DNA of 64,000 nt, taken from Methanofastidiosum sp. (GTDB lineage: Archaea; Methanobacteriota_B; Thermococci; Methanofastidiosales; Methanofastidiosaceae). Shown piece after piece: positions 7,574 to 30,149 of this stretch. The translations under genes and the position numbers were made by a program. Under the pieces are notes generated by a model. That model did no database searches and was not told where the DNA came from. It worked only from the letters and a program-made list of their open reading frames with translations. The stretch lies in assembly GCA_040771805.1 (NCBI GenBank), contig JAXGZJ010000001.1:1359961-1423960 (forward strand), read 5' to 3'. Within the stretch, counting starts at the first letter, position 1. Each line of letters begins with the position of its first letter.

Positions 7574-7882
7574 CTAATAATTTGAATAAAAAGGATTGGA
7601 AGATTTGTTTAATGATTCTAGCTTTTCGAAGTATATGCCCATCAGGAATCCTATTAAAAAGAAGAATCCAAGTAAGATAATACTTAGAATTACAGTAGAG
7701 GTCATAAATAGATTGATTACAAACATTTCAAATCCTATTATGCAACCTAAGGTAAAAACAATTAAAGCCCTTAAATTCGACGCTTGAATATATTTTTTTG
7801 GAGGCACTTTGTCTATAACCTCATCTATAAGTGTCTTGACTTCTGTTATCAATTTTAAATCATTTTGTTTAATGGAAGCCAT
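7574..7882 (-). CDS. Small hypothetical membrane protein
   Basis: 102 aa, with an amphipathic N-terminus followed by two hydrophobic helices. No recognisable motif. Confidence 0.35.
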   Translation of the reverse strand: MASIKQNDLKLITEVKTLIDEVIDKVPPKKYIQASNLRALIVFTLGCIIGFEMFVINLFMTSTVILSIILLGFFFLIGFLMGIYFEKLESLNKSSNPFYSNY

Positions 7883-8138: not shown

Positions 8139-9527
8139 ATGTACAAAAAGATGGATGATATGGACTTATTGATAGACAATCACCATATAGATGGAAATTA
8201 TTCAATAGAAGATATATCAAGAGAATCAGTAATTTTCATAGAGCTGATTCATGGGATAGTCCACGAATTAAGCAATTCTTTGACTTCTGCTATGGCTGCT
8301 ACTGAAGTTTTGCAGGAAGAAATGATTAAATTAAGAAAAGGATTTAGTGACAATCACATTGATATTAAACTAGTTAATCATATCGAAAAAATCTTTACCC
8401 TGTACAAAACAACGACCGTCAAAAATCAAAATATTTTAAATTATTTACTAAAAATTGAATTTAAAATGCTAAGAGACCAATGTTATAAAATAAACTCCCC
8501 GCATCCAAAATTTGATCTCCTACAAAATTTAATATCGCTGAATATGAAAAGTAACGAAAAGATAGATTTAATTGTTAAAATTTTAAGAAACTTAGTAAAT
8601 ATTGATGAAGATATGGAACTAATCGATGTAAATGAGGTAATAAATACTAGTATCTTCCTATTACAAGACGAACTAAAAAATAAATACGTCATAAAAAAAG
8701 ATTTTTCAAAAGTACCTTTAATCAATTTTAGTTTTCGCCAGTTAAACTATATAATCATTTGTATCTTATTAAAAACTCTTGAGATAATGAATTTCGGTGA
8801 ACTTTCTTTAAAAACATTTGAAACTGATAAAGAAGTCTACATTATAGTTCAATTAAGTGGTGGAGAAATTACCCTAAAGAAAATTGAAGAAATAATAGCT
8901 CAGAAGGATTCGAAAATAGACATATGCTCGGTAAACAAATTACTTAAAAATAAAGGTGGCACCCTAACTATAAAAAAACTTAATGAGAAAAGAAGTTTAA
9001 ATTTGGAAAAAGAATTAGTTGCAGATATAGAGTTTAAAATCAAGCTTAATAAAGCTAATGCAGTAAGCTTCAAATTAAATAAATCTGTTGATTCGAATAA
9101 TAAAAATGAAAATGAATTTCAAGATTTTAAGCCAAGTTTATCCTATGAAGTAAAAAAGGAAAAAAATCAATCGAAAAATATTCTAATTGTTGATGATAAT
9201 CTAGAAACGTTAGTTAGCCTATTTTTGACGCTAAAAAAAGAAGATTTTGGTAATAAGATAATTATTGCTAAAACTGCCGAGGCGGCATTAGAACAATTGC
9301 AAAAAATTAATTTTAACATAATTATTTCTGATTATAAGCTACCAGGAATGAATGGAATTGATTTTTTAAGCCATGTAAAAAATAATTATCCTAATAGTAC
9401 TAGAATCCTTTTGACTGCATTTTTAACTAATTCTGTAAAAAAAGAAGCCAAAAATAAGGCATCAGTTAAAACAATAATTGAAAAGCCTTGGAATAAAGAT
9501 AACTTAATAAAACTAATTAATGAATAA
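8139..9527 (+). CDS. Hybrid two-component protein: histidine-kinase-like core with a C-terminal receiver (REC) domain
   Basis: 462 aa. The H-box is HELSNSLTSAMAATEVL. The C-terminal receiver region NILIVDDNLETL...IIISDYKLPGMNGIDF...RILLTAF contains the conserved Asp and Lys positions. The ATPase G-boxes look weak or degenerate. Confidence 0.55.
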   Translation: MYKKMDDMDLLIDNHHIDGNYSIEDISRESVIFIELIHGIVHELSNSLTSAMAATEVLQEEMIKLRKGFSDNHIDIKLVNHIEKIFTLYKTTTVKNQNILNYLLKIEFKMLRDQCYKINSPHPKFDLLQNLISLNMKSNEKIDLIVKILRNLVNIDEDMELIDVNEVINTSIFLLQDELKNKYVIKKDFSKVPLINFSFRQLNYIIICILLKTLEIMNFGELSLKTFETDKEVYIIVQLSGGEITLKKIEEIIAQKDSKIDICSVNKLLKNKGGTLTIKKLNEKRSLNLEKELVADIEFKIKLNKANAVSFKLNKSVDSNNKNENEFQDFKPSLSYEVKKEKNQSKNILIVDDNLETLVSLFLTLKKEDFGNKIIIAKTAEAALEQLQKINFNIIISDYKLPGMNGIDFLSHVKNNYPNSTRILLTAFLTNSVKKEAKNKASVKTIIEKPWNKDNLIKLINE

Positions 9528-14726: not shown

Positions 14727-15817
14727 ATGAACAATAAAATAACTGCCATTTTCATAGTAGCTATATTCTTGATGTCTTTTGGGGTAGTTCTTGCAGCTGA
14801 CGGGGATGTTATCTGGAAAAGAGAGTATGACGGCAATGGTCCTGACTACGCAATGGGTGTAGCAACAGACTCTTATAACAACGTCATAGTAACAGGTTAT
14901 TCTTTTATGGGCGATAATTTAGATAATTTAAACTACTGCACCATAAAGTACGACGCAGCCGGAAACATTATCTGGAAAAGAGAGTATGACGGCGGCGATG
15001 AGGACGGAGCAAAAGGTGTAGCAACAGACTCTTATAACAACGTCATAGTAACAGGTATTTCTGAGATAGGTGGCAGGCGTTCTGACTACTGCACTATAAA
15101 ATATGATCCAAATGGAAACGTTGTCTGGGAAAAGGAGTACGATAGCGGCTTTGATGACTTTGCAAACGGTGTAGCAACAGACTCTTATAACAACGTCATA
15201 GTGACAGGTTATTCTAAGATAGGTGGCAAAATTAGATATTGCACCATAAAATATGATCCAAATGGAAACATTATCTGGAAAAGGAGTACGATAGCGGCTT
15301 TGATGACTTTGCAAACGGTGTAGCAACAGACTCTTATAACAACGTCATAGTAACAGGTTATTCTATTATAGGTGGCAAAATTAGATATTGCACCATAAAA
15401 TATGATCCAAATGGAAACATTATCTGGAAAAGAGAGTATGACGGCGGCGATAATGCCGGAGCAAACGGTGTAGCAACAGACTCTTATAACAACGTCATAG
15501 TAACAGGTTATTCTATTATAGGCGGCAGTCCTCCTGACTACTGCACCATAAAATATGATCCAAATGGAAACATTATCTGGAAAAGAGAGTATGACGGCGG
15601 CGATGAGGACGGAGCAAAAGGTGTAGCAACAGACTCTTATAACAACGTCATAGTAACAGGTATTTCTGAGATAGGTGGCAGGCGTTCTGACTACTGCACC
15701 ATAAAATACCAAGGTGTTCCTCCAAGAAGTAAATCCCTTCCAATAGACAAGTTCTTGAAGATACTTAAGAGAAACAGGTGCAAAAATCATCCAGATGCAG
15801 AAGACTGTAAAGTTTAG
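14727..15817 (+). pseudogene. SBBP-type beta-propeller repeat surface protein gene interrupted by a -1 frameshift near 15278-15283. It may instead be a sequencing/assembly error or a phase-variable tract.
   Basis: It has a signal peptide, then about 7 repeats of YCTIKYDPNGNIIWKREYDGG..GA.GVATDSYNNVIVTG.S. Frame 0 runs 14727-15323. The same repeat protein then continues in frame 2 to TAG at 15815-15817. The shift coincides with ctgggaaaagg versus ctggaaaagg in otherwise identical repeat copies. Confidence 0.5.
14800..15720 (+). repeat. Near-identical tandem DNA repeats of variable length (~149-159 nt) encoding the SBBP repeats
   Basis: Blocks of ~100 nt are identical between copies, for example 15001-15100 versus 15600-15700. 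The motif atctggaaaagagagtatgacggc recurs at 14811, 14970, 15422 and 15575. Confidence 0.7.
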
Positions 15818-16350: not shown

Positions 16351-17109
16351 GTGGTAAAGATGGAAGAAATAAATTGTAAAAAATGCGGTAAAATTATTTC
16401 CAGTGAATTCCCACATTGCCCTTATTGCAGAGAAAGTTTGTCAAAGGAAAAACAAGATCGGGCTAATTACTTTTCTTTATGTAGGCATTGTGGCAGGGGA
16501 TTAAGAAGGATATGGATAACTTGCCCCTACTGTAACGGCATATTGGATTCAATATCATATGAAAAGTATAAACATATGGAAAGTAAGAATCCTGAAGCTG
16601 TAGAATCTAACAGAAAGGGAAATGAGTATCTTGAGTCGCGTGATGCTGCAAATGCAATCAAGTGCTATGAAAGAGCTATTGAACTGGATCCAAGCTATAC
16701 AGTCGCATGGCGTAGCAAAGGAATATCACTTTTAAATATAGGGAGAGACTCAGAGGCATTGTCGTGTTTTGAAAGGGCTACTGAGCTAAATCCAAATTAT
16801 GCACCTGCATGGCGTAACAAAGGAGTGTCACTCCTTAGGCTAGGGAAATATCCAGAGGCATTGTCATGCTATGAAAGAGCTATCGAACTGGATCCAAATA
16901 ATGCGTTTGCATGGCGCAATAAAGGAATATCTCTATTAAATATGGGAAGGTATTCAGAGGCATTGTCGTGTTTTGAAAGGGCTACTGAGCTAAATCCAAA
17001 GGATGCACATGCGTGGTGGAACAAAGGAGTTGCACTTCAGGAACTCGGTAGGGATACCCTAGCAAATGAATGTTTAGATAAGGCCAAACAGCTCGGATAT
17101 AAGGAATAG
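16351..17109 (+). CDS. TPR-repeat protein with two N-terminal zinc-ribbon motifs
   Basis: 252 aa. The N-terminus carries CKKCG...CPYCRE and CRHCG...CPYCNG. About 5 tandem 34-residue TPR units follow (AW.NKG..L..LG.Y.EAL.C.ERA.ELDPN). Confidence 0.6.
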   Translation: MVKMEEINCKKCGKIISSEFPHCPYCRESLSKEKQDRANYFSLCRHCGRGLRRIWITCPYCNGILDSISYEKYKHMESKNPEAVESNRKGNEYLESRDAANAIKCYERAIELDPSYTVAWRSKGISLLNIGRDSEALSCFERATELNPNYAPAWRNKGVSLLRLGKYPEALSCYERAIELDPNNAFAWRNKGISLLNMGRYSEALSCFERATELNPKDAHAWWNKGVALQELGRDTLANECLDKAKQLGYKE

Positions 17110-17303
17110 TATCATTAATTGATTATTTTGATTCCTATTTTAAACATAAGGATATTTTTAAAATGGGCTCTAAGACAGGAGGGGTTTTAGAATTTGTTGA
17201 GCCATCAAAGGACAAACAATTCATCTATAAGGAGAATGAAAGAAATATCCTAGTAAGATAAGCTTCAGTTAGCAATAAATGGTAGTAACTCTTTATATTA
17301 TGC

Positions 17304-17693
17304 ATGGGATGTATTTCTGAAGCTATATGCAAGGATTGTGGCACAAGATACGAAGTTCGTATGGGTGGCGGATTCATTGTCCACGACCTGCACTGCGACA
17401 AGTGCGGCGAGTTACGATGCGTATCATTTCATGAACTGGGTGAAATCCATTTAAAATTCATAAAAGGAATTAAGATACCTTATTGCATTGCAACTGGGGC
17501 TTCCGACAAGTATATCCAAGAAAACTATCCGGGAGAACCAATAGACGAGGACGAGTACCATAGATTGGTCGAAGAGTTTGCAGGAAAATGTAAGTGTGGG
17601 GGGAATTACACATTTAAGGCCCCTATAAGGTGCCCTAACTGTAAGTCTATTAATTTTGAACATGATCCTACTAAATTTACCTTATATGATTGA
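17304..17693 (+). CDS. Hypothetical zinc-ribbon protein
   Basis: 129 aa with four CxxC pairs (CKDCG, HCDKCG, CKCGG, CPNCK). Confidence 0.4.
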   Translation: MGCISEAICKDCGTRYEVRMGGGFIVHDLHCDKCGELRCVSFHELGEIHLKFIKGIKIPYCIATGASDKYIQENYPGEPIDEDEYHRLVEEFAGKCKCGGNYTFKAPIRCPNCKSINFEHDPTKFTLYD

Positions 17694-17829
17694 AAGTGAA
17701 TTAAATTACTCTAAATAATATCCTTTCGATCTTTTCTCATTCCAAAAGCTATAATTGAAATTAATGAACTTCGGGCTCAAAATAACTTATTTGAAATAAA
17801 AAACAACATCACATTAACTTTGTAAAGTG

Positions 17830-17885
17830 TGCGGGGGCCGTGATTTGAACACGGGAACTCCTACGAGACAGGGTCCTAAGCCCTG
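17830..17885 (-). repeat. Partial copy of the tRNA-Leu 3' half (56 bp): the distal attachment-site repeat of the integrated element
   Basis: It is identical over 56 bp to 28048-28103. The sequence diverges immediately outside. It cannot fold as a complete tRNA because no complementary 5' acceptor strand follows. Confidence 0.8.
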
Positions 17886-18465
17886 TGAACTTGAATGAAA
17901 ATCATCCTTCTCTATCCTGGAGGGGGCGTATCTTCATGATACACCATAATCAATAAAGCAGTAATCATTTAAATAATTTTTGGTTATATTTAAATTAAAT
18001 AATTTATTAATCAGGATTTATTAGCATCTCCATGTAAAAAAAGCCTAAAAATCATCAATCAGACACCAATTGATTTATTTTTTCGTATCGCCTACGCCCC
18101 CCCGTTCCTGGCGGAGGGGGGCTGCGGCGATATACCGAAAGAATTATTTTTTTATGCGTCTTGATGATTTTCTTAACGGCTTTTTTATAATCCATGTTTG
18201 AGATTATTTTGGGAGGGGTGGCTCGGCTCTACCCGAAAGAATAAAGAAAAATAAGATTGTTTAGACTAAAGCGCTTATTTTTTATAACGATTAAACCAAT
18301 ACAATTTTGCATACTCAGATTTTGGCATGATTTTAAGATTTGATTTTCTGAAATTCATTTTATTTCTATCGATATGAAGGACTTCATAGCCAGGATAAAT
18401 TGTTCCTCCGACCTTATTTTTTGCTACTAACTATGGGCAAGCTTTCCGGAATTCTTGTATCTAGA

Positions 18466-18648
18466 TTATCCTTTAGAGTCCACAAATATATTTGTATACG
18501 GACCAGATTTAATACTTGAGATTTTCTTAAGAAAAGGAATAGAATTAAATGATTTTGATATTCCTCTAATGATGGCAGATAAACTAACTCCAAATATTCC
18601 GGCTGCAGCATCGTCAGTCCACCCAACGATAGGGGAATAATCTGGCAT
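18466..18648 (-). CDS. Small hypothetical ORF. The region 18414-18648 has three overlapping frames, so the reading frame is uncertain and a frameshifted gene is possible.
   Basis: 60 aa (MPDYSPIVGWTDDAAAGIFGV...). Overlapping alternatives are 18414-18626(-) and 18455-18640(+). Confidence 0.2.
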   Translation of the reverse strand: MPDYSPIVGWTDDAAAGIFGVSLSAIIRGISKSFNSIPFLKKISSIKSGPYTNIFVDSKG

Positions 18649-18741
18649 CAGATCAATAGGGAAAACAGTTCAAATAAGTGCAGCAATTATAGGTATTGCG
18701 CTTAAAAGTAAAAATTTTTTATGATTGATAAACTTTACAGA

Positions 18742-18825
18742 TTAAATTTTACATCCACAATCTAGACAATAAGGACATGATTTAGGGATGAATTTTTTAC
18801 AGTTGATGCATTTATATTTCTCCAT
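18742..18825 (-). CDS. Micro-ORF encoding a 27 aa zinc-ribbon peptide (MEKYKCINCKKFIPKSCPYCLDCGCKI)
   Basis: ATG to TAA with two CxxC pairs. It is below the ORF-track length cutoff, lies inside the integrated element, and its coding status is unproven. Confidence 0.25.
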   Translation of the reverse strand: MEKYKCINCKKFIPKSCPYCLDCGCKI

Positions 18826-18876
18826 ATTGTATCTCCAAATTATTAGTTTTCCTAATTATAAAGATATGGAAATATC

Positions 18877-19347
18877 TCACAATCCAAATAAACTAGATAA
18901 TCCGCTTTCCCATCCAATTGTCTTGCAAATCTTCATAGGTATTGGCCGGAAAGGTTTATCGTTCTTACTACTAGTATTAAGAGAAATTTTTTCAACTACC
19001 TCCGAAAGACTCACCCAATACCAAGTTCTAAATTGGACTGCTTCAACTGAAAATGCGAGCCATATAGGTATTCTGAATATTCTTTCAAATGAAAGGAGTT
19101 TTTGGATTTCTTCTTCGTCTATGACAAATGATTCATATTTTTCATATATTTTTCTTTCTTTAACATCTACTGCAATTATACCGATTGAATTTATTACTAC
19201 TAAAAAATCAGGTCTTTTAGTAACTCCCTTGAATAGGCTTGAAAAGCAATCAAGTGATTGATCAATGTAAAGATACGCATATCCCTTATTTTCCAGCCAT
19301 TCTTTGAATCTTTGTTCAGAATTATTTGATACGACCACGATTATCAC
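18877..19347 (-). CDS. PD-(D/E)XK-fold nuclease-like protein (NERD-like)
   Basis: 156 aa. It reads ...RPDFLVVINSIGIIAVDVKERK, giving a PD...(D/E)xK arrangement. Its composition is protein-like. The overlapping + strand ORF 18788-19261 is judged spurious. Confidence 0.45.
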   Translation of the reverse strand: MIIVVVSNNSEQRFKEWLENKGYAYLYIDQSLDCFSSLFKGVTKRPDFLVVINSIGIIAVDVKERKIYEKYESFVIDEEEIQKLLSFERIFRIPIWLAFSVEAVQFRTWYWVSLSEVVEKISLNTSSKNDKPFRPIPMKICKTIGWESGLSSLFGL

Positions 19348-19502
19348 AAAAACTAGTAGTAAGTTTAAACTAGATTTTCTCCATATATAAACATATGGGA
19401 ATAAATTGAGAAATATACAAAAATTAATTTTTCCATTAGTGATATCTATAATATTAATAGTCTAAAGAGAACTTTTATTAATTATATTTTTTATTTAATA
19501 TC

Positions 19503-20765
19503 ATGAATGATGTTCAAAATGGAAATAATTCAGATTGGGAATTTAAAGGAATATCTAGACATTCAATGTTAATATCGACAGTTCTTTCTAATCGCATTAA
19601 AAGTATAGAAGAAAGTTTAATGGACAAATATGATTTAATTCCAACACCAAATCAAGTTTATGAAGAAAATAAAGAATTATTAGAAAGAATAAAAGAGTAT
19701 ATTAAAGAAGATAATAATTTTAGATCAGTATTAATAGAAAATAAATCTTCTGATTTAGGATTTCCTTATAGAATGAAAATTGAACACAAAAATGGAACAA
19801 TAATAGTTTTTGATGGCATTTCTATACGAAGCTCTAAAATTGTAAATGATAAAAACATCAAAATGGAAGACTTGTTAAAAGAAACAGGATACCCATCCGA
19901 TTATGATGAAATTAATGATTTTAATGAATGTATCAAAAAAAATTTAGATGTTCGATATCTCCGCTATACCCCTTATAGTTATTATACTATCAAGGAAACT
20001 AATTGGGAAAAAATCGGAATAAAATGGAATGGGCAAGAAGGTGAGATATGCCTTATAATAAATGATCCAAATAGATTTGAATTATTTTTCCCACAAAAAT
20101 ATGTAAAAACTGGAGAAGATTTTCATATATATTTGGGAAATGAAAATAAAATACATCAAAGGATATCCCATGACTACTTTATTAAGCGAGAATTAGAAAA
20201 ATATGAAGGATATTATAAAAATAAATTGGAAGAAGTATTAGGATATCGAAGTGACTTAAATAAAGATTTTGGGGGTATAGCCTCTCCAGCTTATAAATTA
20301 CTCAAAAAAACCAAGATGTGGGGATTTGTTAAAAATGCTGTCAAATCATTATATCAACTGATAGATTATATTGAAAGGGGAAATTTTCTTATAGATTATT
20401 TAGAGCGCAATATTAAAGAGAACATATCTTATATTAATTTACCGCCAGTGATTTTTTATATAGGTGGCGAGAAAAAAGATTTAAATAAAATGAATCGTTT
20501 TGAGGAAAAGCATTTTATTGTAATTAGAATTGAAGAAAATAAATCAATATCAAACTCCCCAGAGATTAAATACGCTATACCTTCCTACAACCCTGAAGTC
20601 AAAAATCTAAAATATTATTTAGAAAGTACTTCAAAAAATACGGAAAATATTTATAATCGAGAAAAAGATTTACTAACTGCTTATCAAACTGAATTTGGAT
20701 TATATGGTGTTTGGATTGCTATTATTGCAATTATTATAGCTATGGCCTCTTTATTTTTTAGGTAA
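19503..20765 (+). CDS. Hypothetical protein with a C-terminal transmembrane anchor (tail-anchored)
   Basis: 420 aa, ending GVWIAIIAIIIAMASLFFR. No recognisable motif. It lies in the element. Confidence 0.5.
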   Translation: MNDVQNGNNSDWEFKGISRHSMLISTVLSNRIKSIEESLMDKYDLIPTPNQVYEENKELLERIKEYIKEDNNFRSVLIENKSSDLGFPYRMKIEHKNGTIIVFDGISIRSSKIVNDKNIKMEDLLKETGYPSDYDEINDFNECIKKNLDVRYLRYTPYSYYTIKETNWEKIGIKWNGQEGEICLIINDPNRFELFFPQKYVKTGEDFHIYLGNENKIHQRISHDYFIKRELEKYEGYYKNKLEEVLGYRSDLNKDFGGIASPAYKLLKKTKMWGFVKNAVKSLYQLIDYIERGNFLIDYLERNIKENISYINLPPVIFYIGGEKKDLNKMNRFEEKHFIVIRIEENKSISNSPEIKYAIPSYNPEVKNLKYYLESTSKNTENIYNREKDLLTAYQTEFGLYGVWIAIIAIIIAMASLFFR

Positions 20766-20811
20766 TTATACTAGAAATATAATTTTAGCTATAAGAAATT
20801 TGTATGGCATA

Positions 20812-22263
20812 TCATTCTTCAATCAATAACACCTGAGCCATTTCTTTATTTTTAATAGTTCTATAATAATCTGAGGGATAATTTTCTGGAGTAAATATCT
20901 TCAATGCTTCGTCAAATGCTTCTATGGCTTTTATAACATTATCTTGTTTATCTTTAATTTTAGAAAATTCTATATAGACATTGCCAATATTACCATAAAT
21001 CAAAGCATATTGGTAAGGTTCATTATAGATTTTATATAAAATGAGAGCTTGTGAATACGCATCTAGAGCATTTATTAGATATTGTTCTTTATTTTGATTG
21101 TCTATTTCAGATAGTCTCCTATATATTGCCCCTTGAGTGATTTTTATTGAGCCGTAACTTTCTTTATTTCTTTCGAATGTATTTATCAGTAATGAATCTT
21201 CACAATATCCAAGCGCAATTTTTAGATTATTTAATGGATTTTCGAAAAAGGATAGTCTACGATGCGTAACAGCTAGATTAAAAAGTATATTGGCATAGTC
21301 TCCGGGATATTTTTCTATTGTATAAACTTTCAATGATTCATTAAATTCGTCCAAAGCTAGGTATAAATATTTTTTTCCTTCTGGTAAATCGTTTAGATTA
21401 GAATGGGCAACTCCTAGATTACATTTAGCAAATGCGTATTGATAAGGATACTTTTCAAGAGTAAAGAATCTCAAAGCTTCTTCAAAAGAGATTATGGAAT
21501 TGATAAAATTTGTCTCTTTATCTACGCCTAGCATGGCTAATGTACCATAAGATGCTCCCAAATTTATTTGAATTTTGGCATAGTCGTAACTTACATTATC
21601 ATCTTTATGGATTTCCAGAGCTTTTTTGAAATAACTTATGGACTCCTTGGAATTTTCTACCCTATTCTTGTATTTAGAAAAAGTTGCATAAATTACGCCA
21701 ATATTTGTATTTGTTGAAGCGTATTGCGTAGGGTATTTTTCTTTTGTGAAAACTTTCAAAGCTTTATTAAATGAAATTAGTGCATTATTTAAATTCTCAT
21801 CTCTTGTATTTTCATTCGCATTAGCTCTTTGAGAAAAATTATAATAACATACCCCTTTTTTATGTTCTAGGTCTGCAATAATATCTGGCTTTTCACTTCC
21901 ATTAAACTTATTCTCAAGGGCGACTATCCTCCCAAATGCTTTGTCGAATAGGCCAGAACTGATATCTAGTTGAATACTTTGAAGAGATTCTTCTATTATC
22001 TTTTGATGGTCTCTTCCTTCCTTGTAAGGGATGTATATTGTAAATATGGTGGTTATTATCCCCAAAATTACTCCCAATCCAACAACAATTTTCCAAAACT
22101 TCCTCAGTGACTCTTTGTTTATCATTTTAATCTCCTCCGATTGAGGCGTATATGTCTCTTCTTTACCTTGAATCTTAAATATTTTGTCAAATATTATTGG
22201 GGCAGATATTAAAAATACTAATATGATAATTCCTACAACTAAAATCTTTTTTATAGCTCCCAT
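20812..22263 (-). CDS. Membrane-anchored TPR-like repeat protein
   Basis: 483 aa. There is an N-terminal TM, a second TM around residue 60, and then repeated ~34-40 aa units with Y/A/L periodicity typical of TPR. Confidence 0.5.
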   Translation of the reverse strand: MGAIKKILVVGIIILVFLISAPIIFDKIFKIQGKEETYTPQSEEIKMINKESLRKFWKIVVGLGVILGIITTIFTIYIPYKEGRDHQKIIEESLQSIQLDISSGLFDKAFGRIVALENKFNGSEKPDIIADLEHKKGVCYYNFSQRANANENTRDENLNNALISFNKALKVFTKEKYPTQYASTNTNIGVIYATFSKYKNRVENSKESISYFKKALEIHKDDNVSYDYAKIQINLGASYGTLAMLGVDKETNFINSIISFEEALRFFTLEKYPYQYAFAKCNLGVAHSNLNDLPEGKKYLYLALDEFNESLKVYTIEKYPGDYANILFNLAVTHRRLSFFENPLNNLKIALGYCEDSLLINTFERNKESYGSIKITQGAIYRRLSEIDNQNKEQYLINALDAYSQALILYKIYNEPYQYALIYGNIGNVYIEFSKIKDKQDNVIKAIEAFDEALKIFTPENYPSDYYRTIKNKEMAQVLLIEE

Positions 22264-22370
22264 GGATATTAGAATACTTTCATATTTATATGAATATGGA
22301 AAAATATAGAAATTATTCCCAAGAAAGCTCTAATCTTACTAATAATACTCAAAGAGACTCTTTGCATGAA

Positions 22371-23165
22371 TTAGTTCTCCTCTTCAAAGAATAACTTTTT
22401 TTGTATCAAACTATCGATGGCATTTTCTCCAAACATCTCGATGAGCTTTGCCTTGTCTGTAGCCGGATTGTTTTTGAGAAAAAGAAATGCAATTATTTCT
22501 TTATCCGAGAGTTTCTCGTAATTCTTTAATAATTCCAAGGAAGAATCTTTTTTTTCAGAATTTATTATAATTCGTATTCTATTCAGCTTATTCTGTTTTT
22601 TTATTTTTTTATTTGTTGAGAAAAAAGAGATAATTTTTTCATCCCAGCTTTCTGGGACCAAGGAGCCTATGAAGAAAATCCCAATAGGAACAACTGGAAG
22701 TAACAGGATAAAATAAAATGTTTCGAAAGTACTATTATTTTGGTAATGAATAGTTGTTATTTTTGATTCTATATACGTGTCTCTTGATCCTCCCCAATTT
22801 GAAAAGGTCAAATAATATTTTCCACGAAGGTCAAGCTTTATTATTTTATCAATTTCTTTAGTGTTTAGAATTTCGTATTCAGAAATAAAACTTTTCCAAT
22901 TGGGTCCAATTCTCCTAAGATGATTTTCTTCTGACATTATATAGAAATTTATTGGCTCCGTAGATTTCATTTTAATTTTTATCTCAGATTCTCCAAATAA
23001 ATTAAACTCATACGATTGAGAGTATCCTTTATCAAGATCAAAATTTTTATTTAAGATGTCAAGCTCATACTCCTCTACACATATATCAGCTAATACGGAA
23101 AAGAATAATGCGAACGCAATTAAAATTATTACAATAATACCAGATATTTTGCTAGATTTTCTCAT
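22371..23165 (-). CDS. Hypothetical two-TM membrane protein with a possible C-terminal DNA-binding-like tail
   Basis: 264 aa. There is an N-terminal signal anchor, a second hydrophobic helix near residue 150, and a charged C-terminus. Confidence 0.4.
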   Translation of the reverse strand: MRKSSKISGIIVIILIAFALFFSVLADICVEEYELDILNKNFDLDKGYSQSYEFNLFGESEIKIKMKSTEPINFYIMSEENHLRRIGPNWKSFISEYEILNTKEIDKIIKLDLRGKYYLTFSNWGGSRDTYIESKITTIHYQNNSTFETFYFILLLPVVPIGIFFIGSLVPESWDEKIISFFSTNKKIKKQNKLNRIRIIINSEKKDSSLELLKNYEKLSDKEIIAFLFLKNNPATDKAKLIEMFGENAIDSLIQKKLFFEEEN

Positions 23166-23235
23166 ATTAAATCACCAAAGATTAGTTAAATATTGTCTTC
23201 TTCATATATAAGAATATGTAAAAATATAGGGAAAA

Positions 23236-24207
23236 TTAGTCATTCAAATTGAGGAAGTTTTGAAGATATTTCTTATTCTTTTTTTGATTGGCTATATGGA
23301 TATATTTCATAGTCGTGATAAGAGAGTTGTGACCTAAGTGTTCTTGAATCGTATAAGGGTCAACATCATTTAATGCCAGATGCGTTGCGCATGTATGGCG
23401 GAGCTTGTGAGGGTAGACCTTTACTCCGGCAGATTTTCCGGCTTTGGACATTATTTCACAGATACGATTTCGAGTAAGCCGATTTCTATTCCTTTTAGAC
23501 TGAAATAGAGCTTTATAGTGAGGATGCGATGATCTTTCAAGCGCAGTGTACAAAACGATAGCTAAGACGACATCTGCAGACAGTTCTCTTTCATAATCTC
23601 GCCGGTTTTTAGTATCCCTTAAAATTACAGAGCCCGACCAATAATAAAATCCGATGTTTTTAAAATCGTCAAAATCATCCCAATTATTGAGAAGATGTAG
23701 AAGCATCTCTACTGGATATCTAGAGAGGGTGGGAGACAATCTAAGGGAGGTACTACCGTTTTCATAGCTTTTTTGGACATATTTAAAATCATCAATATTG
23801 AGATTTACTACTTCAGACACCCTAAGGCCACCCTTCGCCATCAGAAGGAACATGGCAAGGTCGCGGTAGGACTTGAAATGAATCATCACTTTATTGAATT
23901 CCTCCTGGGTGAGGTACTCAGTCAGAGGATGATTGCTCTTGGGCAGTGGCAGATGATTTTCAATATTATGGAAGGAAAGGTAGTGATTCAGAATGACCGC
24001 AATATTCCTGGCCGTTTTAGGGGCATATTTATCAGAGCGGTACTGAAGATAGAACTTCCGTACATTTTCATAAAGATTGTTTTCATCGGTATCAGGATAT
24101 TCCCTCTTGAACTTCTCGATTATTCTCATATAGTCTTTGACCTGGGCTTCGGCTATGCACTTGTCAATAATCAGGTAGTTCTTGAAATCTTCGGATGATT
24201 TAAGCAT
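23236..24207 (-). CDS. Tyrosine integrase/recombinase (phage-integrase family), element-encoded
   Basis: 323 aa. The catalytic region reads HKLRHTCATHLALNDVDPYTIQEHLGHNSLITTMKYIH. The N-terminus is similar to the second integrase. Confidence 0.8.
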   Translation of the reverse strand: MLKSSEDFKNYLIIDKCIAEAQVKDYMRIIEKFKREYPDTDENNLYENVRKFYLQYRSDKYAPKTARNIAVILNHYLSFHNIENHLPLPKSNHPLTEYLTQEEFNKVMIHFKSYRDLAMFLLMAKGGLRVSEVVNLNIDDFKYVQKSYENGSTSLRLSPTLSRYPVEMLLHLLNNWDDFDDFKNIGFYYWSGSVILRDTKNRRDYERELSADVVLAIVLYTALERSSHPHYKALFQSKRNRNRLTRNRICEIMSKAGKSAGVKVYPHKLRHTCATHLALNDVDPYTIQEHLGHNSLITTMKYIHIANQKKNKKYLQNFLNLND

Positions 24208-24420
24208 GTCAAACGCCCCCCTCAGAAAATAAAGATTGAATCAATAAAAGGTTATTGAATTTCTATATAAATAATAATTTTTATCTTTTAGCTTCCTCGA
24301 GTTATATATTCAAGTAAGTTGATTCTTTCTCATAATCCCATCGAGAATGCCCTCTATATCGGCAGTCGTATCGTCAAAATTATTCCTACTAATTTTAAAA
24401 AATTTACAAAGCGGGCATTT

Positions 24421-24870
24421 CTATTTATATCCAAGGATAAACGGACTTTCATTTAATTCAATTTTGCATCTGGGGCAGAGAGGAATTTTCTCTACGGCAA
24501 ATATAGGTTTAGGAGTCGTGTCTGTTAAACTTAGAGGGTGTGGTTTGTAACTATATATCTCCCAAATGACATTATTATGCTCATATGTAGAGTGAATAGT
24601 CCAATCTTCGTTATTATAATATTGTTTACAATACCGGCGTTTTGATTTTTTGCGAGATGATTTCTTATAAGATATATACAATGCAATGGCAAATAGCATT
24701 AATATTAGAATCAAGGATAAATAATTAATTTCAAAAGTAAAGAAAAAATTTTTTATCCTTAGATCATTATCAATAAGATACTCAAAATATTTTATAATAA
24801 GACCGCCAGCTACAGCAATAATAATCCCATAGCATATATACTGTTTTGCACTCATATTATCTTTTTTCAT
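24421..24870 (-). CDS. Hypothetical membrane protein with a C-terminal CxxC pair
   Basis: 149 aa, two TM helices, a basic linker, and CPRCK near the C-terminus. Confidence 0.35.
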   Translation of the reverse strand: MKKDNMSAKQYICYGIIIAVAGGLIIKYFEYLIDNDLRIKNFFFTFEINYLSLILILMLFAIALYISYKKSSRKKSKRRYCKQYYNNEDWTIHSTYEHNNVIWEIYSYKPHPLSLTDTTPKPIFAVEKIPLCPRCKIELNESPFILGYK

Positions 24871-24992
24871 TTGATATTTGTAAGAATAATTGTTTAATAA
24901 ATATACCCTTATACCAATCTTGTTTAATGCTATTTGAAATACGATTAACTAAAAAACGAATATTATCGAAATAGGAAATAATTAACTAATAG

Positions 24993-25817
24993 CTATTTAA
25001 CATCAAAGTCTTGGGCTATTGATAGAGCATATTTTTTGTAGTTTGTTTTCTGGACTTCATCCACTGCATGGATGTATATCTGGGTCGATTCATAGCTTCG
25101 ATGCCTCAGCTGATTCTTAATAGTGTCTATATCTGCGCCGTTTATCCTCATCTGAGTTGCGCAGGTGTGCCTCAGCATATGAGGGTGGACTTTGACCCCT
25201 ATTGAATCTCCGGCTTTTTTTATAGTATTCTGGATTGCCCTTGTGCTGATTCTGGTATTCCTTCGGGTCAAGAATAGAGCCTTGTTCTTGATAGAGTTAT
25301 CCCTTTCAAGCGCTATGTAGCTCTGGATTAATGATATGGTGTCCTCCATAAGGTACACCTTCCAATCCTCCCTGTTTTTAGTATCCTTGAGCAGGATGTA
25401 TCCATCGTCGTTCTTGAAATAAAGGTCGTCGAGATTGAGCTTTGAGACCTCGCTGACTCTAAGCCCCGCTTGGACCATTAAGAGGAATAGGGAGATGTCG
25501 CGGTAAGAGGAAAATTGACACAGCATCTTATAGACATCCTCCTTCTTCAGGTACTGGATTTTAGTCTTGTTTTTCTTCGGAGGTTTTATGGAGAAGTCGA
25601 TTCCCCTGTATTCTGAAAATCTGTTTAGCGCAAAAGCGATGTTTCTGATGGTGGACTTTGAGTAATCACCATTTAGGTAGGAGATGTAGAACTCCATAAT
25701 ATCATCCTTTGATTCTCCAGGATATTTGGATCTAAAGCTCTCTATGGTGTATAGGTAGCACTGGGCTTGATAGGGAGATATGCCCTTTTCTATTATCAAA
25801 AAGTTCTTGAAGTCCAT
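24993..25817 (-). CDS. Tyrosine integrase/recombinase (second copy, paralogous to 23236-24207)
   Basis: 274 aa. The catalytic region reads HMLRHTCATQMRINGADIDTIKNQLRHRSYESTQIYIH. The N-terminus MDFKNFLIIEKGISPYQAQCY resembles the other integrase (DFKNYLIIDKCIAEAQVKDY). Confidence 0.8.
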   Translation of the reverse strand: MDFKNFLIIEKGISPYQAQCYLYTIESFRSKYPGESKDDIMEFYISYLNGDYSKSTIRNIAFALNRFSEYRGIDFSIKPPKKNKTKIQYLKKEDVYKMLCQFSSYRDISLFLLMVQAGLRVSEVSKLNLDDLYFKNDDGYILLKDTKNREDWKVYLMEDTISLIQSYIALERDNSIKNKALFLTRRNTRISTRAIQNTIKKAGDSIGVKVHPHMLRHTCATQMRINGADIDTIKNQLRHRSYESTQIYIHAVDEVQKTNYKKYALSIAQDFDVK

Positions 25818-25898
25818 ACACGCCTCCAGATATTTAATAAACTACGAATTAGGAAAAACAGCCCATTATGAAAGAGTATATGGAAAAGAAAGGCGTTG

Positions 25899-27890
25899 TC
25901 AGCCATCCGATGCCTCCCGATAAGATTCTAAGGATTCAAATACTAGATTTTTAAGTAAAGTGAAGGGGTCTAATGGTTCTTTGTGAATACAAGTATTACT
26001 AACTATAGGGCCCTCATTTGAAGGATCTAGATTAGGAGTAGTTTCAACACTATTTAGGGAATAAAAGAAAGAGTATAGAGGCACATGGCAGTCAAGACAC
26101 AATGTCCCTAATGGCGTTAATACCCAGCATTTTAGTGAACGATTATATCTTATTAATTTAAGGCGGACAAGCTTCTTTACATATTTCTTGTATTGGTATT
26201 CGCTGTAGCCGAAATTCAACATAATTGAATCTACCTCTTTAAAGTCAGATATTTCATTGAGGATTTCACGCATGGTCTTATTTTTTAGTTTAGGGAGTTT
26301 CTGGTCCAAATAAGGGGTTGATTTATCGGATAAAGAGCGGATAAACTCGGTGATGCCGGAAAGAGGGTAATAGGTCTCAAATACTTCAGCTAAGAATGAT
26401 TTGAACAGTTTTCGGCGATGCTCAAGTGAGAAACAGGGATATCCCGATAGTAAAGGATTTAGATACCTGATAATTTGGGCATCCTTTCTTTTTGTATCAG
26501 ACAGCCTTGAGATGTCCTTTGATTCGAGCTTCAATTCAAATCTTTCAACAAACCAGGGAATTTGAATTCCGCGCCTTTGGTAGAGCTCTAAGGTCTTGTC
26601 ATAAACATATGCCTTTGGCCTATTGGGAAACTCAAAATAAATTGTAGAGCCTTTGAGGATTGAGATATATTCTGAATTGCAGGCGGCGTAAGATGCTATG
26701 ACGGAATGGAACATCTTTTGCTTTCTCTTTGAGGGGAAGAAGAAGTTGACGTGCAGTTCAAGATAATTGGGGATTATATTTTCAAAGTCAATCATGAAGA
26801 GCTTGCTTAGGTACTGGGCGAAGTTGTATGGATGGTTTTCGGAAGAATCATAATAACGAGAATGCTCAAGCTTTTTGATATATGTGATTTCAAGGGGGTC
26901 AATGTCATTTAGAATTGTTACATTCCCGAAATCAAATTCTCCAAAATTCCCTCTTTTAAAATAGAAGTTGCTGGAAGGGCCGGAATTTATAGAAGCAGGC
27001 TCAAAGAGAAGATTGAATAAATTATGAAGTTCTTCGTTTGCGCGGCATAGGCACCTGGTATTGGAGTCATATGTATCCTGGCTAATTACAAGATTATACG
27101 GCGCCTCACATTCAGGGTCGTATATGGGAAGATTGTACCTGATATGGGATGTAAAAGGAAAATCCGTCCTAATCTCCAGGGTAAGACCGGATATAAAATT
27201 TATTTTATACCACCAGGGATTGTTTTTGCCCCTGTAATGTTGGAAGTTGGCAATTGATTCAACCCCGTAGGCAGAAGGATTTTTTGAAATTGGCTCGTAA
27301 ATATATTTTCTTAAGAAATATCCAAATTCAGAGCACCATTTATCGAGTGCACAAATATAATACGCATCTTCATCGGAAATAGGCTTGCCTTTAGAAATCT
27401 GATCCTTTAATGCGTAGGCCTTGTGACCCGAGGGGAACAGGTTTAACTGCTTCAATCCGAATCTGTCCAAAACAACAGATGACATAAAGGTTGAAAGTTC
27501 CGGGATTTTTGAGAACTCGTAAGCTTCATACATCTGTTTACGGGTATAGTAGGCCAGTTTTTTTTCATTAAGTGCACGGTCAATTATAGATATTTTTTCT
27601 TCTGTCTGGTCTAGATAGCAGATTAAGATGGAATTATTGGGATTTTGAGAAATAGCAGATTTAAGGGCTTTAAGAGATAGCATAAGCCCGGCTCTTTCTT
27701 TTTTCAGCTCTTTTCTTTCTTTATCAATTTCGGCGAATGATTCTTTTAATTCAGAATATAGCGAAATCAAAGTTTTCTGATTGTCAATATCTGTTGCAGA
27801 CAATCCTATATCCAGCTCATCAATTATGTCCTGGTATTTAGCAAGTGATTCCGGATCTTCCAATATATAATTTCGCCTCATATTGAACAC
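25899..27890 (-). CDS. Large hypothetical protein of the element, possibly a replication/initiator-like protein with a C-terminal winged-helix-like region
   Basis: 663 aa with no recognisable catalytic motif. The C-terminal segment (MREILNEISDFKEVDSIMLNFGYSEYQYKKYVKKLVRLKLIRY) looks wHTH-like. It is the largest gene and lies next to the tRNA junction. Confidence 0.35.
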   Translation of the reverse strand: MFNMRRNYILEDPESLAKYQDIIDELDIGLSATDIDNQKTLISLYSELKESFAEIDKERKELKKERAGLMLSLKALKSAISQNPNNSILICYLDQTEEKISIIDRALNEKKLAYYTRKQMYEAYEFSKIPELSTFMSSVVLDRFGLKQLNLFPSGHKAYALKDQISKGKPISDEDAYYICALDKWCSEFGYFLRKYIYEPISKNPSAYGVESIANFQHYRGKNNPWWYKINFISGLTLEIRTDFPFTSHIRYNLPIYDPECEAPYNLVISQDTYDSNTRCLCRANEELHNLFNLLFEPASINSGPSSNFYFKRGNFGEFDFGNVTILNDIDPLEITYIKKLEHSRYYDSSENHPYNFAQYLSKLFMIDFENIIPNYLELHVNFFFPSKRKQKMFHSVIASYAACNSEYISILKGSTIYFEFPNRPKAYVYDKTLELYQRRGIQIPWFVERFELKLESKDISRLSDTKRKDAQIIRYLNPLLSGYPCFSLEHRRKLFKSFLAEVFETYYPLSGITEFIRSLSDKSTPYLDQKLPKLKNKTMREILNEISDFKEVDSIMLNFGYSEYQYKKYVKKLVRLKLIRYNRSLKCWVLTPLGTLCLDCHVPLYSFFYSLNSVETTPNLDPSNEGPIVSNTCIHKEPLDPFTLLKNLVFESLESYREASDG

Positions 27891-28047
27891 ATACTTCTAT
27901 TATTGAAAGCCGTACCAGAATAGTCCAGGTCTACAATTAAAGCGCAAGGTTTTAGGCCCTGTGACATTAGGAGTTGGAAATTTATTCTAGTTCAGCTTTA
28001 AGACCAATCCGCAAAGGATTGGTAAGATAGAAAAGAATGATTTCTGA

Positions 28048-28132
28048 TGCGGGGGCCGTGATTTGAACACGGGAACTCCTACGAGACAGGGTCCTAAGCC
28101 CTGCACCTTTGACCAGGCTCGGCAACCCCCGC
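28048..28132 (-). tRNA. tRNA-Leu (anticodon TAG), class II with a long variable arm. CCA is not encoded.
   Basis: The reverse complement folds as acceptor GCGGGGG/CCCCCGC, anticodon stem CAGGG/CCCUG with loop CUUAGGA, a long variable arm, and T-arm CCGUGUUCAAAUCACGG. Confidence 0.85.
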
Positions 28133-28254
28133 GTATTTATAAAATCCAAACCATATATTTTGAAATTCTTTATAAATGTAACGATAATTGTTACGTCAAT
28201 TAAATACAGTGAAACTTTTATATTAAGCCAATAACTTATTTTTAGGTGTAAGAA

Positions 28255-28755
28255 ATGGAACATTTAATGGCCGATAAGGCGAAAGATATTCTTGGGATAA
28301 TGAAGGTCTTTTCTATTGACCCTCTTGAAGTTAAAAATTGTAGTTTCCCGGGGCATAAAGGAAGGGATTCTGGGGATAGTAGTATTGGTTTTTTAGAATA
28401 TACTGATGATAAAAATATCTACACCATCCATTCTGTTCATTATTGTAGACAACACAGGAATATATCTATATTAGAAATACAAAAAAGATTAAAAGATAAA
28501 ATTAAAGGCATTACTGAAGATAAAGGCACAGTATTAATAACAAAAATTAAGATAGATCCTGAAAGCTTTCCAGAAAAAGATATTCTTGGTAAAAAGGTTA
28601 GTATTGAAGAAACTACTTCAATTCTTATTAACAAGGGTAATTTAGGATTTTTAATAAATATTTCTGAAGAATCAAAAAATATGACATTGAAGGAAGTTAT
28701 TGATAAAATAATGAATCTAGAAATTGAATTTGATATCGCTTGGGAGGAATTCTAA
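28255..28755 (+). CDS. Hypothetical protein
   Basis: 166 aa. It overlaps the pyk start by 16 nt, which suggests co-transcription. No motif recognised. Confidence 0.4.
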   Translation: MEHLMADKAKDILGIMKVFSIDPLEVKNCSFPGHKGRDSGDSSIGFLEYTDDKNIYTIHSVHYCRQHRNISILEIQKRLKDKIKGITEDKGTVLITKIKIDPESFPEKDILGKKVSIEETTSILINKGNLGFLINISEESKNMTLKEVIDKIMNLEIEFDIAWEEF

Positions 28756-30149
28756 ATTTGAAGAAAACTAAGATAATATGCACAATAGGGCCAAGTGTTT
28801 CAAATTATGAGATGATAGCAAAACTTGTTAACTCTGGAATGGATGTAGCAAGATTAAATTTCTCCCATGGCACCCACTCCGAACATCTCAAGGTGATAAA
28901 AACAATAAGGGAAGTATCTGAAGATACAAACAAAAGAGTGGGTATTCTGCTGGATACCAAAGGCCCCGATATTAGGATTGGAGAGTTCAACAATACAATC
29001 CGTATATTCACGGGACAGGAATATGTATTTTCTTCAAAAAAACAAAATGGTATTATCCAATTACAAAATGATATATCCCAATTTTTGAAATCTGGTGATA
29101 GAGTCTTAATTGATGACGGTACACTAATCTTTACGGTAGTTAAAATTGAAGATGGAAATATTTATCTCAAAGCATTGAATGAAGGATATCTTAGACAAAA
29201 GGTAAGTATAAACATACCTGGGGATGCATATTGTCCTTCCGCCGTTACTAAGAATGATATAGTTGACATCAAATTTGGAGTGAAGAATGATGTAGATTTC
29301 ATTGCACTGTCCTTTGCATCGACTAAAGAGGATATATTGAAAGCTAGAGAGTTAATAAATGGGGAACAATGGATTATATCAAAGGTAGAATCAAATTATG
29401 GAATAAAAAACATAAATGATTTAATAGAATATTCTGAAGGAATAATGGTTGCGAGAGGGGATTTAGGTGTTGAAATTGATCTTTCTAGAATCCCAAGCGT
29501 TCAAAGATCTATAATAGAAAAATGCAATGCCAAAGGTAGACCAGTCATAGTAGCAACTCAAATGTTAAACTCAATGATAGAAAATCCAAGGCCAACTAGG
29601 GCGGAAGTAGAGGATATAGCCAGTGCAATTTACAGTGGTGCTGATGCAGTTATGTTATCAGGTGAAACAGCAATTGGGAAATACCCGATTGAGAGTGTGG
29701 AAATGATGGTAAAAGTGGCCATTGAAACTGAGAAAGAACTTAAACCGAGAACGGATTATGGGCCATCTAAAAGAATTGCAGACGTGATATCTTCTCTTGT
29801 CGCTAAAGCCGTATTACTTTCTGAAGTTAAAGCAATAGTTACTTCAACTAGATCTGGGTATACTGCATGTATGGTGTCTCGACATAAACTGTCTGTACCC
29901 ACCTATGGTATGACAAACAATCCCGCAACTGCCAGAAAGCTCTCTTTAGTTTGGGGTATAAGAGAAGTGCATTTAAACAGAGAGAAAGAGGGGATTTCAG
30001 ACGGAGCCTTTCATGCTGCCAAATATTTAAAAAGTGAAGGATTACAAGATAGTGATCTTTTCATTTTTACAGCAGGAGTTAGTAATTCAAAAAAACAAAG
30101 AACTAATCTGCTAGAAATTAGAGAGATAGGAGAGGTCTTATCTTCTTGA
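28740..30149 (+). CDS. pyk: Pyruvate kinase
   Basis: 469 aa. It reads KTKIICTIGPSVSNYEMIAKLVNSGMDVARLNFSHG and carries MVARGDLGVEI. Confidence 0.85.
   Translation: MGGILNLKKTKIICTIGPSVSNYEMIAKLVNSGMDVARLNFSHGTHSEHLKVIKTIREVSEDTNKRVGILLDTKGPDIRIGEFNNTIRIFTGQEYVFSSKKQNGIIQLQNDISQFLKSGDRVLIDDGTLIFTVVKIEDGNIYLKALNEGYLRQKVSINIPGDAYCPSAVTKNDIVDIKFGVKNDVDFIALSFASTKEDILKARELINGEQWIISKVESNYGIKNINDLIEYSEGIMVARGDLGVEIDLSRIPSVQRSIIEKCNAKGRPVIVATQMLNSMIENPRPTRAEVEDIASAIYSGADAVMLSGETAIGKYPIESVEMMVKVAIETEKELKPRTDYGPSKRIADVISSLVAKAVLLSEVKAIVTSTRSGYTACMVSRHKLSVPTYGMTNNPATARKLSLVWGIREVHLNREKEGISDGAFHAAKYLKSEGLQDSDLFIFTAGVSNSKKQRTNLLEIREIGEVLSS

Follow-up and report, generated by a model that had tools for sequence, protein, structure and literature searches.

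A recently mobile, tRNA-Leu-integrated element of Methanofastidiosum with a predicted Rep_trans-like initiator and a candidate hairpin origin

We analysed a stretch of 64,000 nucleotides (hereinafter the window) from contig JAXGZJ010000001.1 of the archaeon Methanofastidiosum sp. (GenBank assembly GCA_040771805.1). It contains an integrated element bounded by two copies of a 56-bp direct repeat (17830-17885 and 28048-28103) that enclose 10,162 bp. Between the repeats lie eight open reading frames (ORFs) of 149-663 residues along with a few tiny ORFs. Their products include two tyrosine recombinases, a large protein with the features of a Rep_trans-like replication initiator, a nuclease-like protein and several membrane proteins, and they are accompanied by a conserved hairpin-rich non-coding region (Table 1). 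An earlier note on this DNA had described a perfect repeat with abrupt ends, and the comparison bears this out: the two copies are identical at 56/56 positions (100%) and the identity ends sharply on both sides of each of them. A perfect 56-mer repeated within 64 kb cannot have arisen by chance. ARAGORN recovers a tRNA-Leu(TAG) gene on the minus strand at 28048-28132, and a reading of the sequence places the right copy of the repeat at positions 30-85 of this tRNA. This span covers the entire anticodon stem-loop including its 5' stem, both the variable and the T arm, and the 3' acceptor strand with the discriminator. The earlier note had correctly assigned the repeat to this tRNA but had limited it, within the anticodon stem, to the 3' side, leaving out the 5' stem. 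Further, it had held that the left copy is not part of a second functional tRNA, and indeed ARAGORN folds no tRNA there.

Public contigs were collected by looking up exact matches to the products of the integrase gene and of both flanking genes; they are derived mostly from anaerobic-digester metagenomes. Six of them (L011, L013, L016, L019, L029 and L030) display the empty site that had been predicted, with an uninterrupted tRNA-Leu next to the gene at 17304-17693. These contigs show the DUF8255 gene (17304-17693), a single 56-bp core, the 5' part of the tRNA and a 166-residue gene (28255-28755), in that order. A three-way alignment establishes that the empty site equals the left flank, the core and the right flank, exact to the base. 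In two of these contigs (L011 and L013) the left flank matches the window at 8582/8582 bases (100.000%) and the right flank at 7863/7864 bases (99.987%); given this near-complete identity, the same strain exists with and without the element. A relative with ~94% identity likewise has an empty site (L041 and L043). The occupied contigs, which come from six assemblies (L001-L004, L006 and L010), have copies of the element that are identical across all 10,274 bp. Apparent variants in gene content were examined and rejected: those in L003, L008 and L010 are split integrase calls that reflect gene-calling differences on identical DNA, while those in L005 and L060 come from low-coverage assemblies with indels. 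We thus directly observe that the element is inserted, where exactly it ends, and that it can be present in or absent from the same strain, and it is practically certain that we are dealing with a 10.2-kb integrative element whose gain or loss is very recent. The element is of an ordinary kind, being a tRNA-integrating one with tyrosine integrases, and it is unusually well documented by its natural presence and absence within a single strain.

The two tyrosine integrase genes that had been proposed are both confirmed by their matches to the phage integrase family PF00589 (Table 1). Among the NCBIfam models, both proteins score best against the archaeal XerA (XerA_Arch), with 167.8 bits for the 274-residue and 135.8 bits for the 323-residue protein, yet both remain below the cut-off of 220 bits. 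They are 37% identical to each other, and the catalytic R...HxxR...Y signature can be read in both translations as GLRVSE, HxLRH and a terminal Y. Both genes are complete and internal, lying 2.2-4.8 kb from the attachment (att) sites, which are outside of them; hence, the integration is of the non-partitioning type, in agreement with the non-gene-splitting (pNOB8-type) integration claimed earlier. Like the pNOB8-type elements, the studied element has an intact int gene, an att site that duplicates the 3' portion of a tRNA gene, a regenerated tRNA and flanking direct repeats. It differs from them in that its integrases are closest to the archaeal XerA (by the NCBIfam comparison only, and below the cut-off), and in having two paralogous integrases that are situated in the interior rather than beside att. 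The 274-residue integrase shows 73% identity to the integrase of a sister element found at a tRNA-Arg gene (see below), and we infer that it is the likely catalyst of integration and excision.

The same site is used by a second, distinct element, here termed element B. In sample ERZ21942150 (contig L004), the core upstream of the studied element is joined to element B and not to the 5' part of the tRNA. Element B is found either in tandem with the studied element, as in this contig, or alone in a ~94%-identical sister strain (L038-L040), and ends with a 282-residue integrase directly beside att. On the tRNA side of element B (L026), the 3' part of the tRNA-Leu is unlike the native one at many positions and identity resumes only at CTAAGCCCTGCAC, a 13-bp window made up of the anticodon loop and the 5' anticodon stem; the native 3' part has moved to the junction between element B and the studied element. 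The diverged 3' part indicates that element B supplied its own 3' part of the tRNA, with strand exchange occurring within CTAAGCCCTGCAC. By analogy with element B, the crossover of the studied element would also fall within this anticodon loop and 5' stem. The two elements share the att core and related XerA-like integrases (32% identity between the 274- and 282-residue proteins). They differ in that the cargo of element B is unrelated, that the parts of it seen have no rep-like gene, that its integrase adjoins att, and that it carries the diverged tRNA 3' part.

Some further observations pertain to element B in its own right. It spans L004:1-6146, L026:1-4258, L038, L039 and L040:1-12199, and codes for an RNaseH/PolB-exonuclease-like protein, a radical SAM enzyme and a Cys-rich protein of 1.1-1.2 thousand residues, as well as for a trypsin-like peptidase, a TrmB-like regulator and a protein with DUF2341. 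Element B is possibly a virus. The rebuilt tRNA-Leu (L026:4259-4346) differs from the native one in the T arm, the variable arm and the acceptor, and is still called as a tRNA-Leu(TAG) by ARAGORN; the host would accordingly rely on a tRNA half supplied by the element.

The largest ORF of the studied element had been listed in the earlier note as a 663-residue cargo protein of unknown function. The ORF itself stands; translation most likely begins with the ATG at 27881 rather than the GTG at 27890, giving 660 residues as in all public assemblies, and its sequence features now point to a likely replication initiator. The protein has an N-terminal coiled coil, an α/β catalytic-like domain (~140-460), a winged helix (~540-600) and a tail. 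A search of 5.8 billion proteins retrieved only the protein itself and two clusters with ~60% identity. Four more distant relatives (P0005-P0007 and P0009; 24-29% identity) emerged when 1.8 billion cluster representatives were exhaustively searched with a profile; a fifth match was discarded as a spurious repeat protein. The family comprises about six related clusters, all from Methanofastidiosales-type contigs: the sole named homologue is from "Methanofastidiosum sp.", and the species-representative genomes of GTDB contain one relative, in an uncultured "Thermococci" metagenome-assembled genome. Every relative with a readable context is at most two genes away from a tyrosine integrase; in L048 a 350-residue ORF occupies the equivalent position of the integrase. 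One of the distant relatives, a 617-residue protein (L044:1-13120), is encoded on a contig of at least 16 kb together with a 345-residue integrase, many small ORFs and a weak match to the DUF87 (HerA/VirB4-like) ATPases, and may come from a bigger relative of these elements that is conjugative or viral.

Searches against Pfam with the 660-residue protein yielded, in addition to the winged helix, a sub-threshold match to Rep_trans (PF02486; 13.6 bits against a cut-off of 29.6), and weak matches to the same family emerge independently in 5/7 family members (best E=0.0041). For comparison we used RepC of pT181, whose published catalytic Tyr191 is, by residue count, the Y of RIYNKKQE. Since the 120 RepC homologues among the matches listed were all near-identical staphylococcal copies, a diverse set of six Rep_trans proteins, 27-83% identical to RepC, was instead taken from plasmid records. 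In hhalign comparisons, the archaeal family aligned with RepC at E=0.061 and with the six Rep_trans proteins at E=0.0052 (probability 6.9%), through the same 46-column alignment. This alignment pairs T416, Y418, Y430, K432, E435, R450 and E452 with T176, Y178, Y191, K193, E196, R212 and E214 of RepC, respectively. Seven residues are invariant in the aligned stretch of the archaeal family, and six of them fall on positions that are invariant in Rep_trans as well, including the nucleophile and a metal ligand; the motif around Y430 is Y-D-K, versus the Y-x-x-K of Rep_trans motif III. The acidic metal ligands of RepDE are D46, D142 and E214 (PMC13107129). While E452 of the archaeal protein is aligned with E214, its invariant D142 and E378 are matched to the other two ligands by eye only, and a relaxed hhalign comparison did not align them with these ligands.

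The resemblance to the Rep_trans proteins (PF02486; pT181 RepC, pC221 RepD and ICEBs1 NicK) lies in the block T-x-Y-F ... (R/V)-x-Y-(N/D)-K-x-x-E ... R-x-E, in the alignment of Tyr191 and Glu214 with the invariant Y430 and E452, and in the presence of a hairpin-containing putative origin. It is offset by scores that are all below threshold, an archaeal host, and a protein that is twice as long due to the addition of the coiled coil and the winged helix. On balance, we judge it probable from these motifs that the 660-residue protein is a divergent initiator of the Rep_trans superfamily.

A structure predicted with AlphaFold2 from seven sequences (predicted local distance difference test score, pLDDT, of 62.4) shows a coiled-coil hairpin, an α/β domain and a winged helix; a model from three sequences was unusable (pLDDT 39.7). 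The winged helix matches HTH_45, MarR_2, TrmB, HVO_A0261_N and Sso10a in sequence and MarR-type proteins in fold. Sequence searches of the PDB recovered only the coiled coil and the winged helix, and PDB fold searches with the model were uninformative for the catalytic domain. A Foldseek search of BFVD with the model returned A0A345MP47 (E=1.8e-4) and a mimivirus TFIID/TBP protein (2.9e-3). These matches recall those of RepSNJ2, which has been found to resemble TBP-fold proteins and an inovirus Rep_trans protein (PMC13107129, 2026), A0A345MP47 being the neighbouring accession to the latter. The archaeal Rep-Arvir family, of which RepSNJ2 is the founding member, combines DUF7845 with a winged helix and has been linked to Rep_trans by structure only; RepSNJ2 has also been shown to need a hairpin origin (PMC13107129).

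Among the Rep-Arvir proteins are RepSNJ2 of the betapleolipovirus SNJ2, ORF528 of PAV1 and the Reps of pRT1 and pAMT11 (PMC13107129). In common with them, the 660-residue protein belongs to an archaeal mobile genetic element, has a catalytic-like domain followed by a winged helix, is associated with an integrase and an integrative element, is accompanied by a conserved hairpin in the same element, and shows similar distant fold matches (TBP-fold proteins and a protein of the inovirus series). However, none of the seven family members (0/7) matches the Rep-Arvir model PF25227 (DUF7845) at E<=1, whereas PAV1 ORF528, used as a control, does so with 2.6e-55; hhalign of the family against PAV1 ORF528 aligns the winged helix only. 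The 660-residue protein is further set apart by an additional N-terminal coiled coil of ~130 residues, by a bacterial-type Tyr motif (VYDK..E) as opposed to the KHYYM of Rep-Arvir, and by the location of the hairpin, which is across attP and upstream of rep, in contrast to the downstream hairpin of Rep-Arvir. We accordingly place it neither with Rep-Arvir nor with Rep_trans proper, and take it for a divergent protein of their common superfamily, with a mode of action that is probably alike.

The sister element, from another Methanofastidiosum species (L031:9773-14659), throws light on which of these parts belong together. It is 4.8 kb long, is flanked by a 51-bp repeat of a tRNA-Arg(TCG) gene with one mismatch, and shows the order tRNA, rep-like gene (the 60% relative), Cys-rich ORF, N-truncated integrase, hairpin region and membrane ORF; it is probably immobilised. 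The sharing of the 660-residue-type gene, the 274-residue-type integrase and the hairpin region by the two elements implies that these form a conserved backbone. We also observed that the anticodon stem-loops of the tRNA-Leu and tRNA-Arg targets are nearly identical (GGGCTT[A/C]GGACCC).

The hairpin region is 78.6% identical to its counterpart in the sister element (L031:13580-13730), whereas the shared genes are ~66% identical. When compared with shuffled sequences, its folding has z-scores of -6.9 for the minus and -3.7 for the plus strand. It is predicted to form an outer stem of 22 bp, in which two neighbouring pairs show compensatory swaps, an inner C5/G5 hairpin whose loop varies, and another hairpin in which one pair is swapped; across the two elements, double-sided compensatory changes affect 3/32 predicted pairs. 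The region additionally contains two CCGAA[A/T]GAAT motifs, with the variable base changing jointly in both copies. A 46-residue ORF within it was rejected as a gene, not being conserved in the sister element. A search of 17000-29000 against Rfam by E-value gave no matches and missed the tRNA-Leu too, and hence carries little weight for this region. In a circular form, the hairpin region would come to lie a few hundred base pairs upstream of the rep-like gene, across attP. The intervening 166-bp leader of this gene has a long 5' stretch conserved with the sister element and may be regulatory; its conserved TATA-like box suggests that the rep promoter is probably internal to the element.

The ~6 kb between the integrase and the hairpin region is low-GC accessory cargo. 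The GC content is 26-31% in 19-23 kb (cargo) as against 37-41% in 25-28 kb (rep and integrase), and this contrast suggests that modules of differing history have been put together in the element; a composite of two fused elements was considered and set aside, as no degenerate internal copy of att was found. The PD-(D/E)XK-like nuclease named in the earlier note is plausible, if weak: the 156-residue protein has matches to Hjc (7e-4), NERD (1.6e-3), HYExAFE (6e-6) and phrog_28481 (7.5e-7), and a readable motif, RPD47...D61-V-K63. The TPR and membrane proteins and a tiny zinc-ribbon ORF are likewise present as described (Table 1). In contrast, the idea that the cargo might serve defence or exclusion receives no support from PADLOC, which has 0 matches for six cargo proteins.

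Table 1. Features of the integrated element and its target tRNA gene, with positions in the window
Feature	Position	Strand	Basis
attL, tRNA-distal copy of the 56-bp att core	17830-17885	.	Perfect copy of 28048-28103; single core in empty-site contigs
Conserved hairpin-rich non-coding region, ~215 bp, candidate origin or structured RNA	18033-18250	.	Conservation, folding, compensatory changes
60-residue ORF, weak match to a DUF1232 fragment	18466-18648	-	Pfam E=0.0074; gene call in most assemblies
27-residue Cys4 zinc-ribbon-like ORF	18742-18825	-	Translation; weak zinc-finger match
156-residue PD-(D/E)XK-type nuclease-like protein (Hjc/NERD/HYExAFE-like)	18877-19347	-	Weak matches and readable motif
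420-residue protein, C-terminal membrane anchor	19503-20765	+	No family above noise (Pfam, PHROGs, NCBIfam, PADLOC)
483-residue protein, two N-terminal membrane helices followed by TPR repeats	20812-22263	-	TPR_12 2.2e-13, TPR_2 9.6e-7
264-residue membrane protein	22371-23165	-	No family matches (Pfam, PHROGs, NCBIfam, PADLOC); hydrophobic segments in translation
Second tyrosine recombinase, 323 residues, XerA-like, ~45-residue insertion	23236-24207	-	PF00589 2.1e-27
149-residue two-helix membrane protein, C-terminal CxxC	24421-24870	-	Translation; family matches at noise level
Backbone tyrosine integrase, 274 residues, XerA-like	24993-25817	-	PF00589 3.3e-33
660-residue Rep_trans-like protein, putative rolling-circle initiator	25899-27881	-	Weak PF02486, hhalign to Rep_trans, AlphaFold2 model, integrase adjacency
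Leader/promoter region upstream of the rep-like gene	27882-28047	-	Aligns with L031:9823-10000, shared TTAGAAT[A/T]AAT TATA-like box
attR, 56-bp att core, positions 30-85 of the functional tRNA-Leu(TAG)	28048-28103	.	Repeat, ARAGORN and empty-site alignment
tRNA-Leu(TAG), integration target, intact after insertion	28048-28132	-	ARAGORN; same tRNA at empty sites

Outside the element, 15005-15708 contains four to five copies of a ~150-bp tandem coding repeat, and 16663-17036 has 102-bp repeats inside a gene for a 252-residue zinc-ribbon/TPR protein. Upstream of this 249/252-residue gene the contigs differ, with gene calls of 161, 198 or 298 residues.

These features are best accommodated by an integrative, plasmid-like element of Methanofastidiosum with a Rep_trans-like initiator and a hairpin origin, a reading to which we assign a probability of roughly 0.7. 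Under this model, a tyrosine recombinase, presumably the XerA-like 274-residue integrase, would recombine the 56-bp copy of the tRNA-Leu(TAG) 3' part on the element (attP) with the chromosomal tRNA gene (attB); the insertion would rebuild an intact tRNA, with the displaced copy staying at the far end. The 660-residue protein would be a nicking enzyme of the Rep_trans superfamily, with Tyr430 as the catalytic residue, Glu452 as a metal ligand and a C-terminal winged helix. Once the element is excised, this protein would bind to the hairpin region and introduce a nick there, thereby starting rolling-circle replication of the circle in a manner that parallels both RepSNJ2 of Rep-Arvir and RepC of pT181. 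That the hairpin region is the replication origin is a possibility to which we give somewhat less than an even chance.

Several points weigh against this model. The hairpin motif was not found in the distant relatives L044-L048, the sequence of the hairpin loop is not conserved between the studied and the sister element, and an RNA or a bidirectional terminator would account for the hairpin equally well. Both integrases remain candidates for acting on the att site. Lastly, the excised circular (attP) junction that had been anticipated was not encountered in JGI metagenome contigs, IMG/VR or the ~60 contigs that we fetched and inspected, raw reads being outside this search.

The alternatives differ mainly in the role that they assign to the 660-residue protein. 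With its coiled coil and winged helix, it might be a DNA-binding regulator without nuclease activity, or a recombination-directionality factor that aids the integrase, in which case the element would not replicate by itself. The winged helix is the only robustly detected domain of the protein, and the strict adjacency to the integrase would also suit an excision cofactor. However, in a family whose members are just 24-29% identical, the invariant residues fall on the catalytic motif of Rep_trans, including the nucleophilic Tyr and the metal-binding Glu, and a length of 660 residues far exceeds that of the known directionality factors. We accordingly regard this alternative as unlikely.

A second alternative takes the element for a provirus, e.g. 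of the pleomorphic membrane-vesicle type, with the membrane proteins as parts of the virion and the 660-residue protein as the viral initiator. Initiators of the Rep-Arvir/Rep_trans kind do occur in pleolipoviruses and spindle viruses (PMC13107129), membrane segments are predicted in 4/8 of the larger proteins, and the size of the element suits small archaeal viruses. Yet the element proteins show no match to a capsid, spike, packaging ATPase or structural PHROG, IMG/VR has no relative of the rep-like, 420-residue or 323-residue proteins, and the tail-anchored 420-residue protein is without a signal peptide. Moreover, of the parts of the studied element, the 4.8-kb sister element retains just rep, the integrase and the hairpin, all of which makes a provirus improbable.

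We accord a similarly low standing to the proposal that the 660-residue protein is a MOBT/NicK-like relaxase of a mobilisable element, with the hairpin being a transfer origin instead of, or besides, a replication origin. Rep_trans enzymes are reported to be relaxases of ICEBs1, ICESt3 and Tn916 (PMC5704250, PMC12614216). The large contig of the distant relative in L044, with its weak match to a DUF87 ATPase, would also be compatible with such a role. Nevertheless, the studied element has no transfer genes and the minimal sister element is too small to hold transfer functions. Further, conjugation by single-stranded DNA is not known to be an established process in these archaea, which also counts against a relaxase. 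Finally, that the element is a fixed, decaying remnant whose presence and absence reflect an old sorting of strains is very improbable: the lack of a circular junction in the contigs searched and the N-truncated integrase and mismatched repeat of the tRNA-Arg sister element are in its favour, but the repeats are perfect, all ORFs are intact, all copies are identical, and occupied and empty genomes differ by at most one base across 16 kb of flank.

Returning to the integrative, plasmid-like element with a Rep_trans-like initiator, its most interesting part is the very divergent Rep_trans-like protein together with its conserved hairpin partner. We tentatively entertain, at slightly below even odds, the notion that the 660-residue family is an undescribed third branch beside Rep_trans and Rep-Arvir, confined to mobile elements of Methanofastidiosales, that, unlike Rep-Arvir, has kept the bacterial-type catalytic motif in its sequence and has a hairpin origin that is joined to it only on circularisation.

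As yet uncultured, the methyl-reducing methanogens of the Methanofastidiosa are common inhabitants of anaerobic digesters, and their mobile elements are nearly uncharacterised. The locus described here provides a recently mobile element with defined attB, attL and attR sites, a shared integration hotspot and a minimal backbone. If the assignment of the rep-like gene is true, Rep_trans-type rolling-circle replication in archaea would extend beyond Rep-Arvir, and the family would offer a bridge, at the level of sequence, between the bacterial and archaeal branches. Genetic tools usually start from an integrase/att pair and a putative replicon such as those described here; if the family does represent a third branch, the element would be the first candidate for an autonomous replicon, and thus raw material for a vector, in this lineage of uncultured methanogens.

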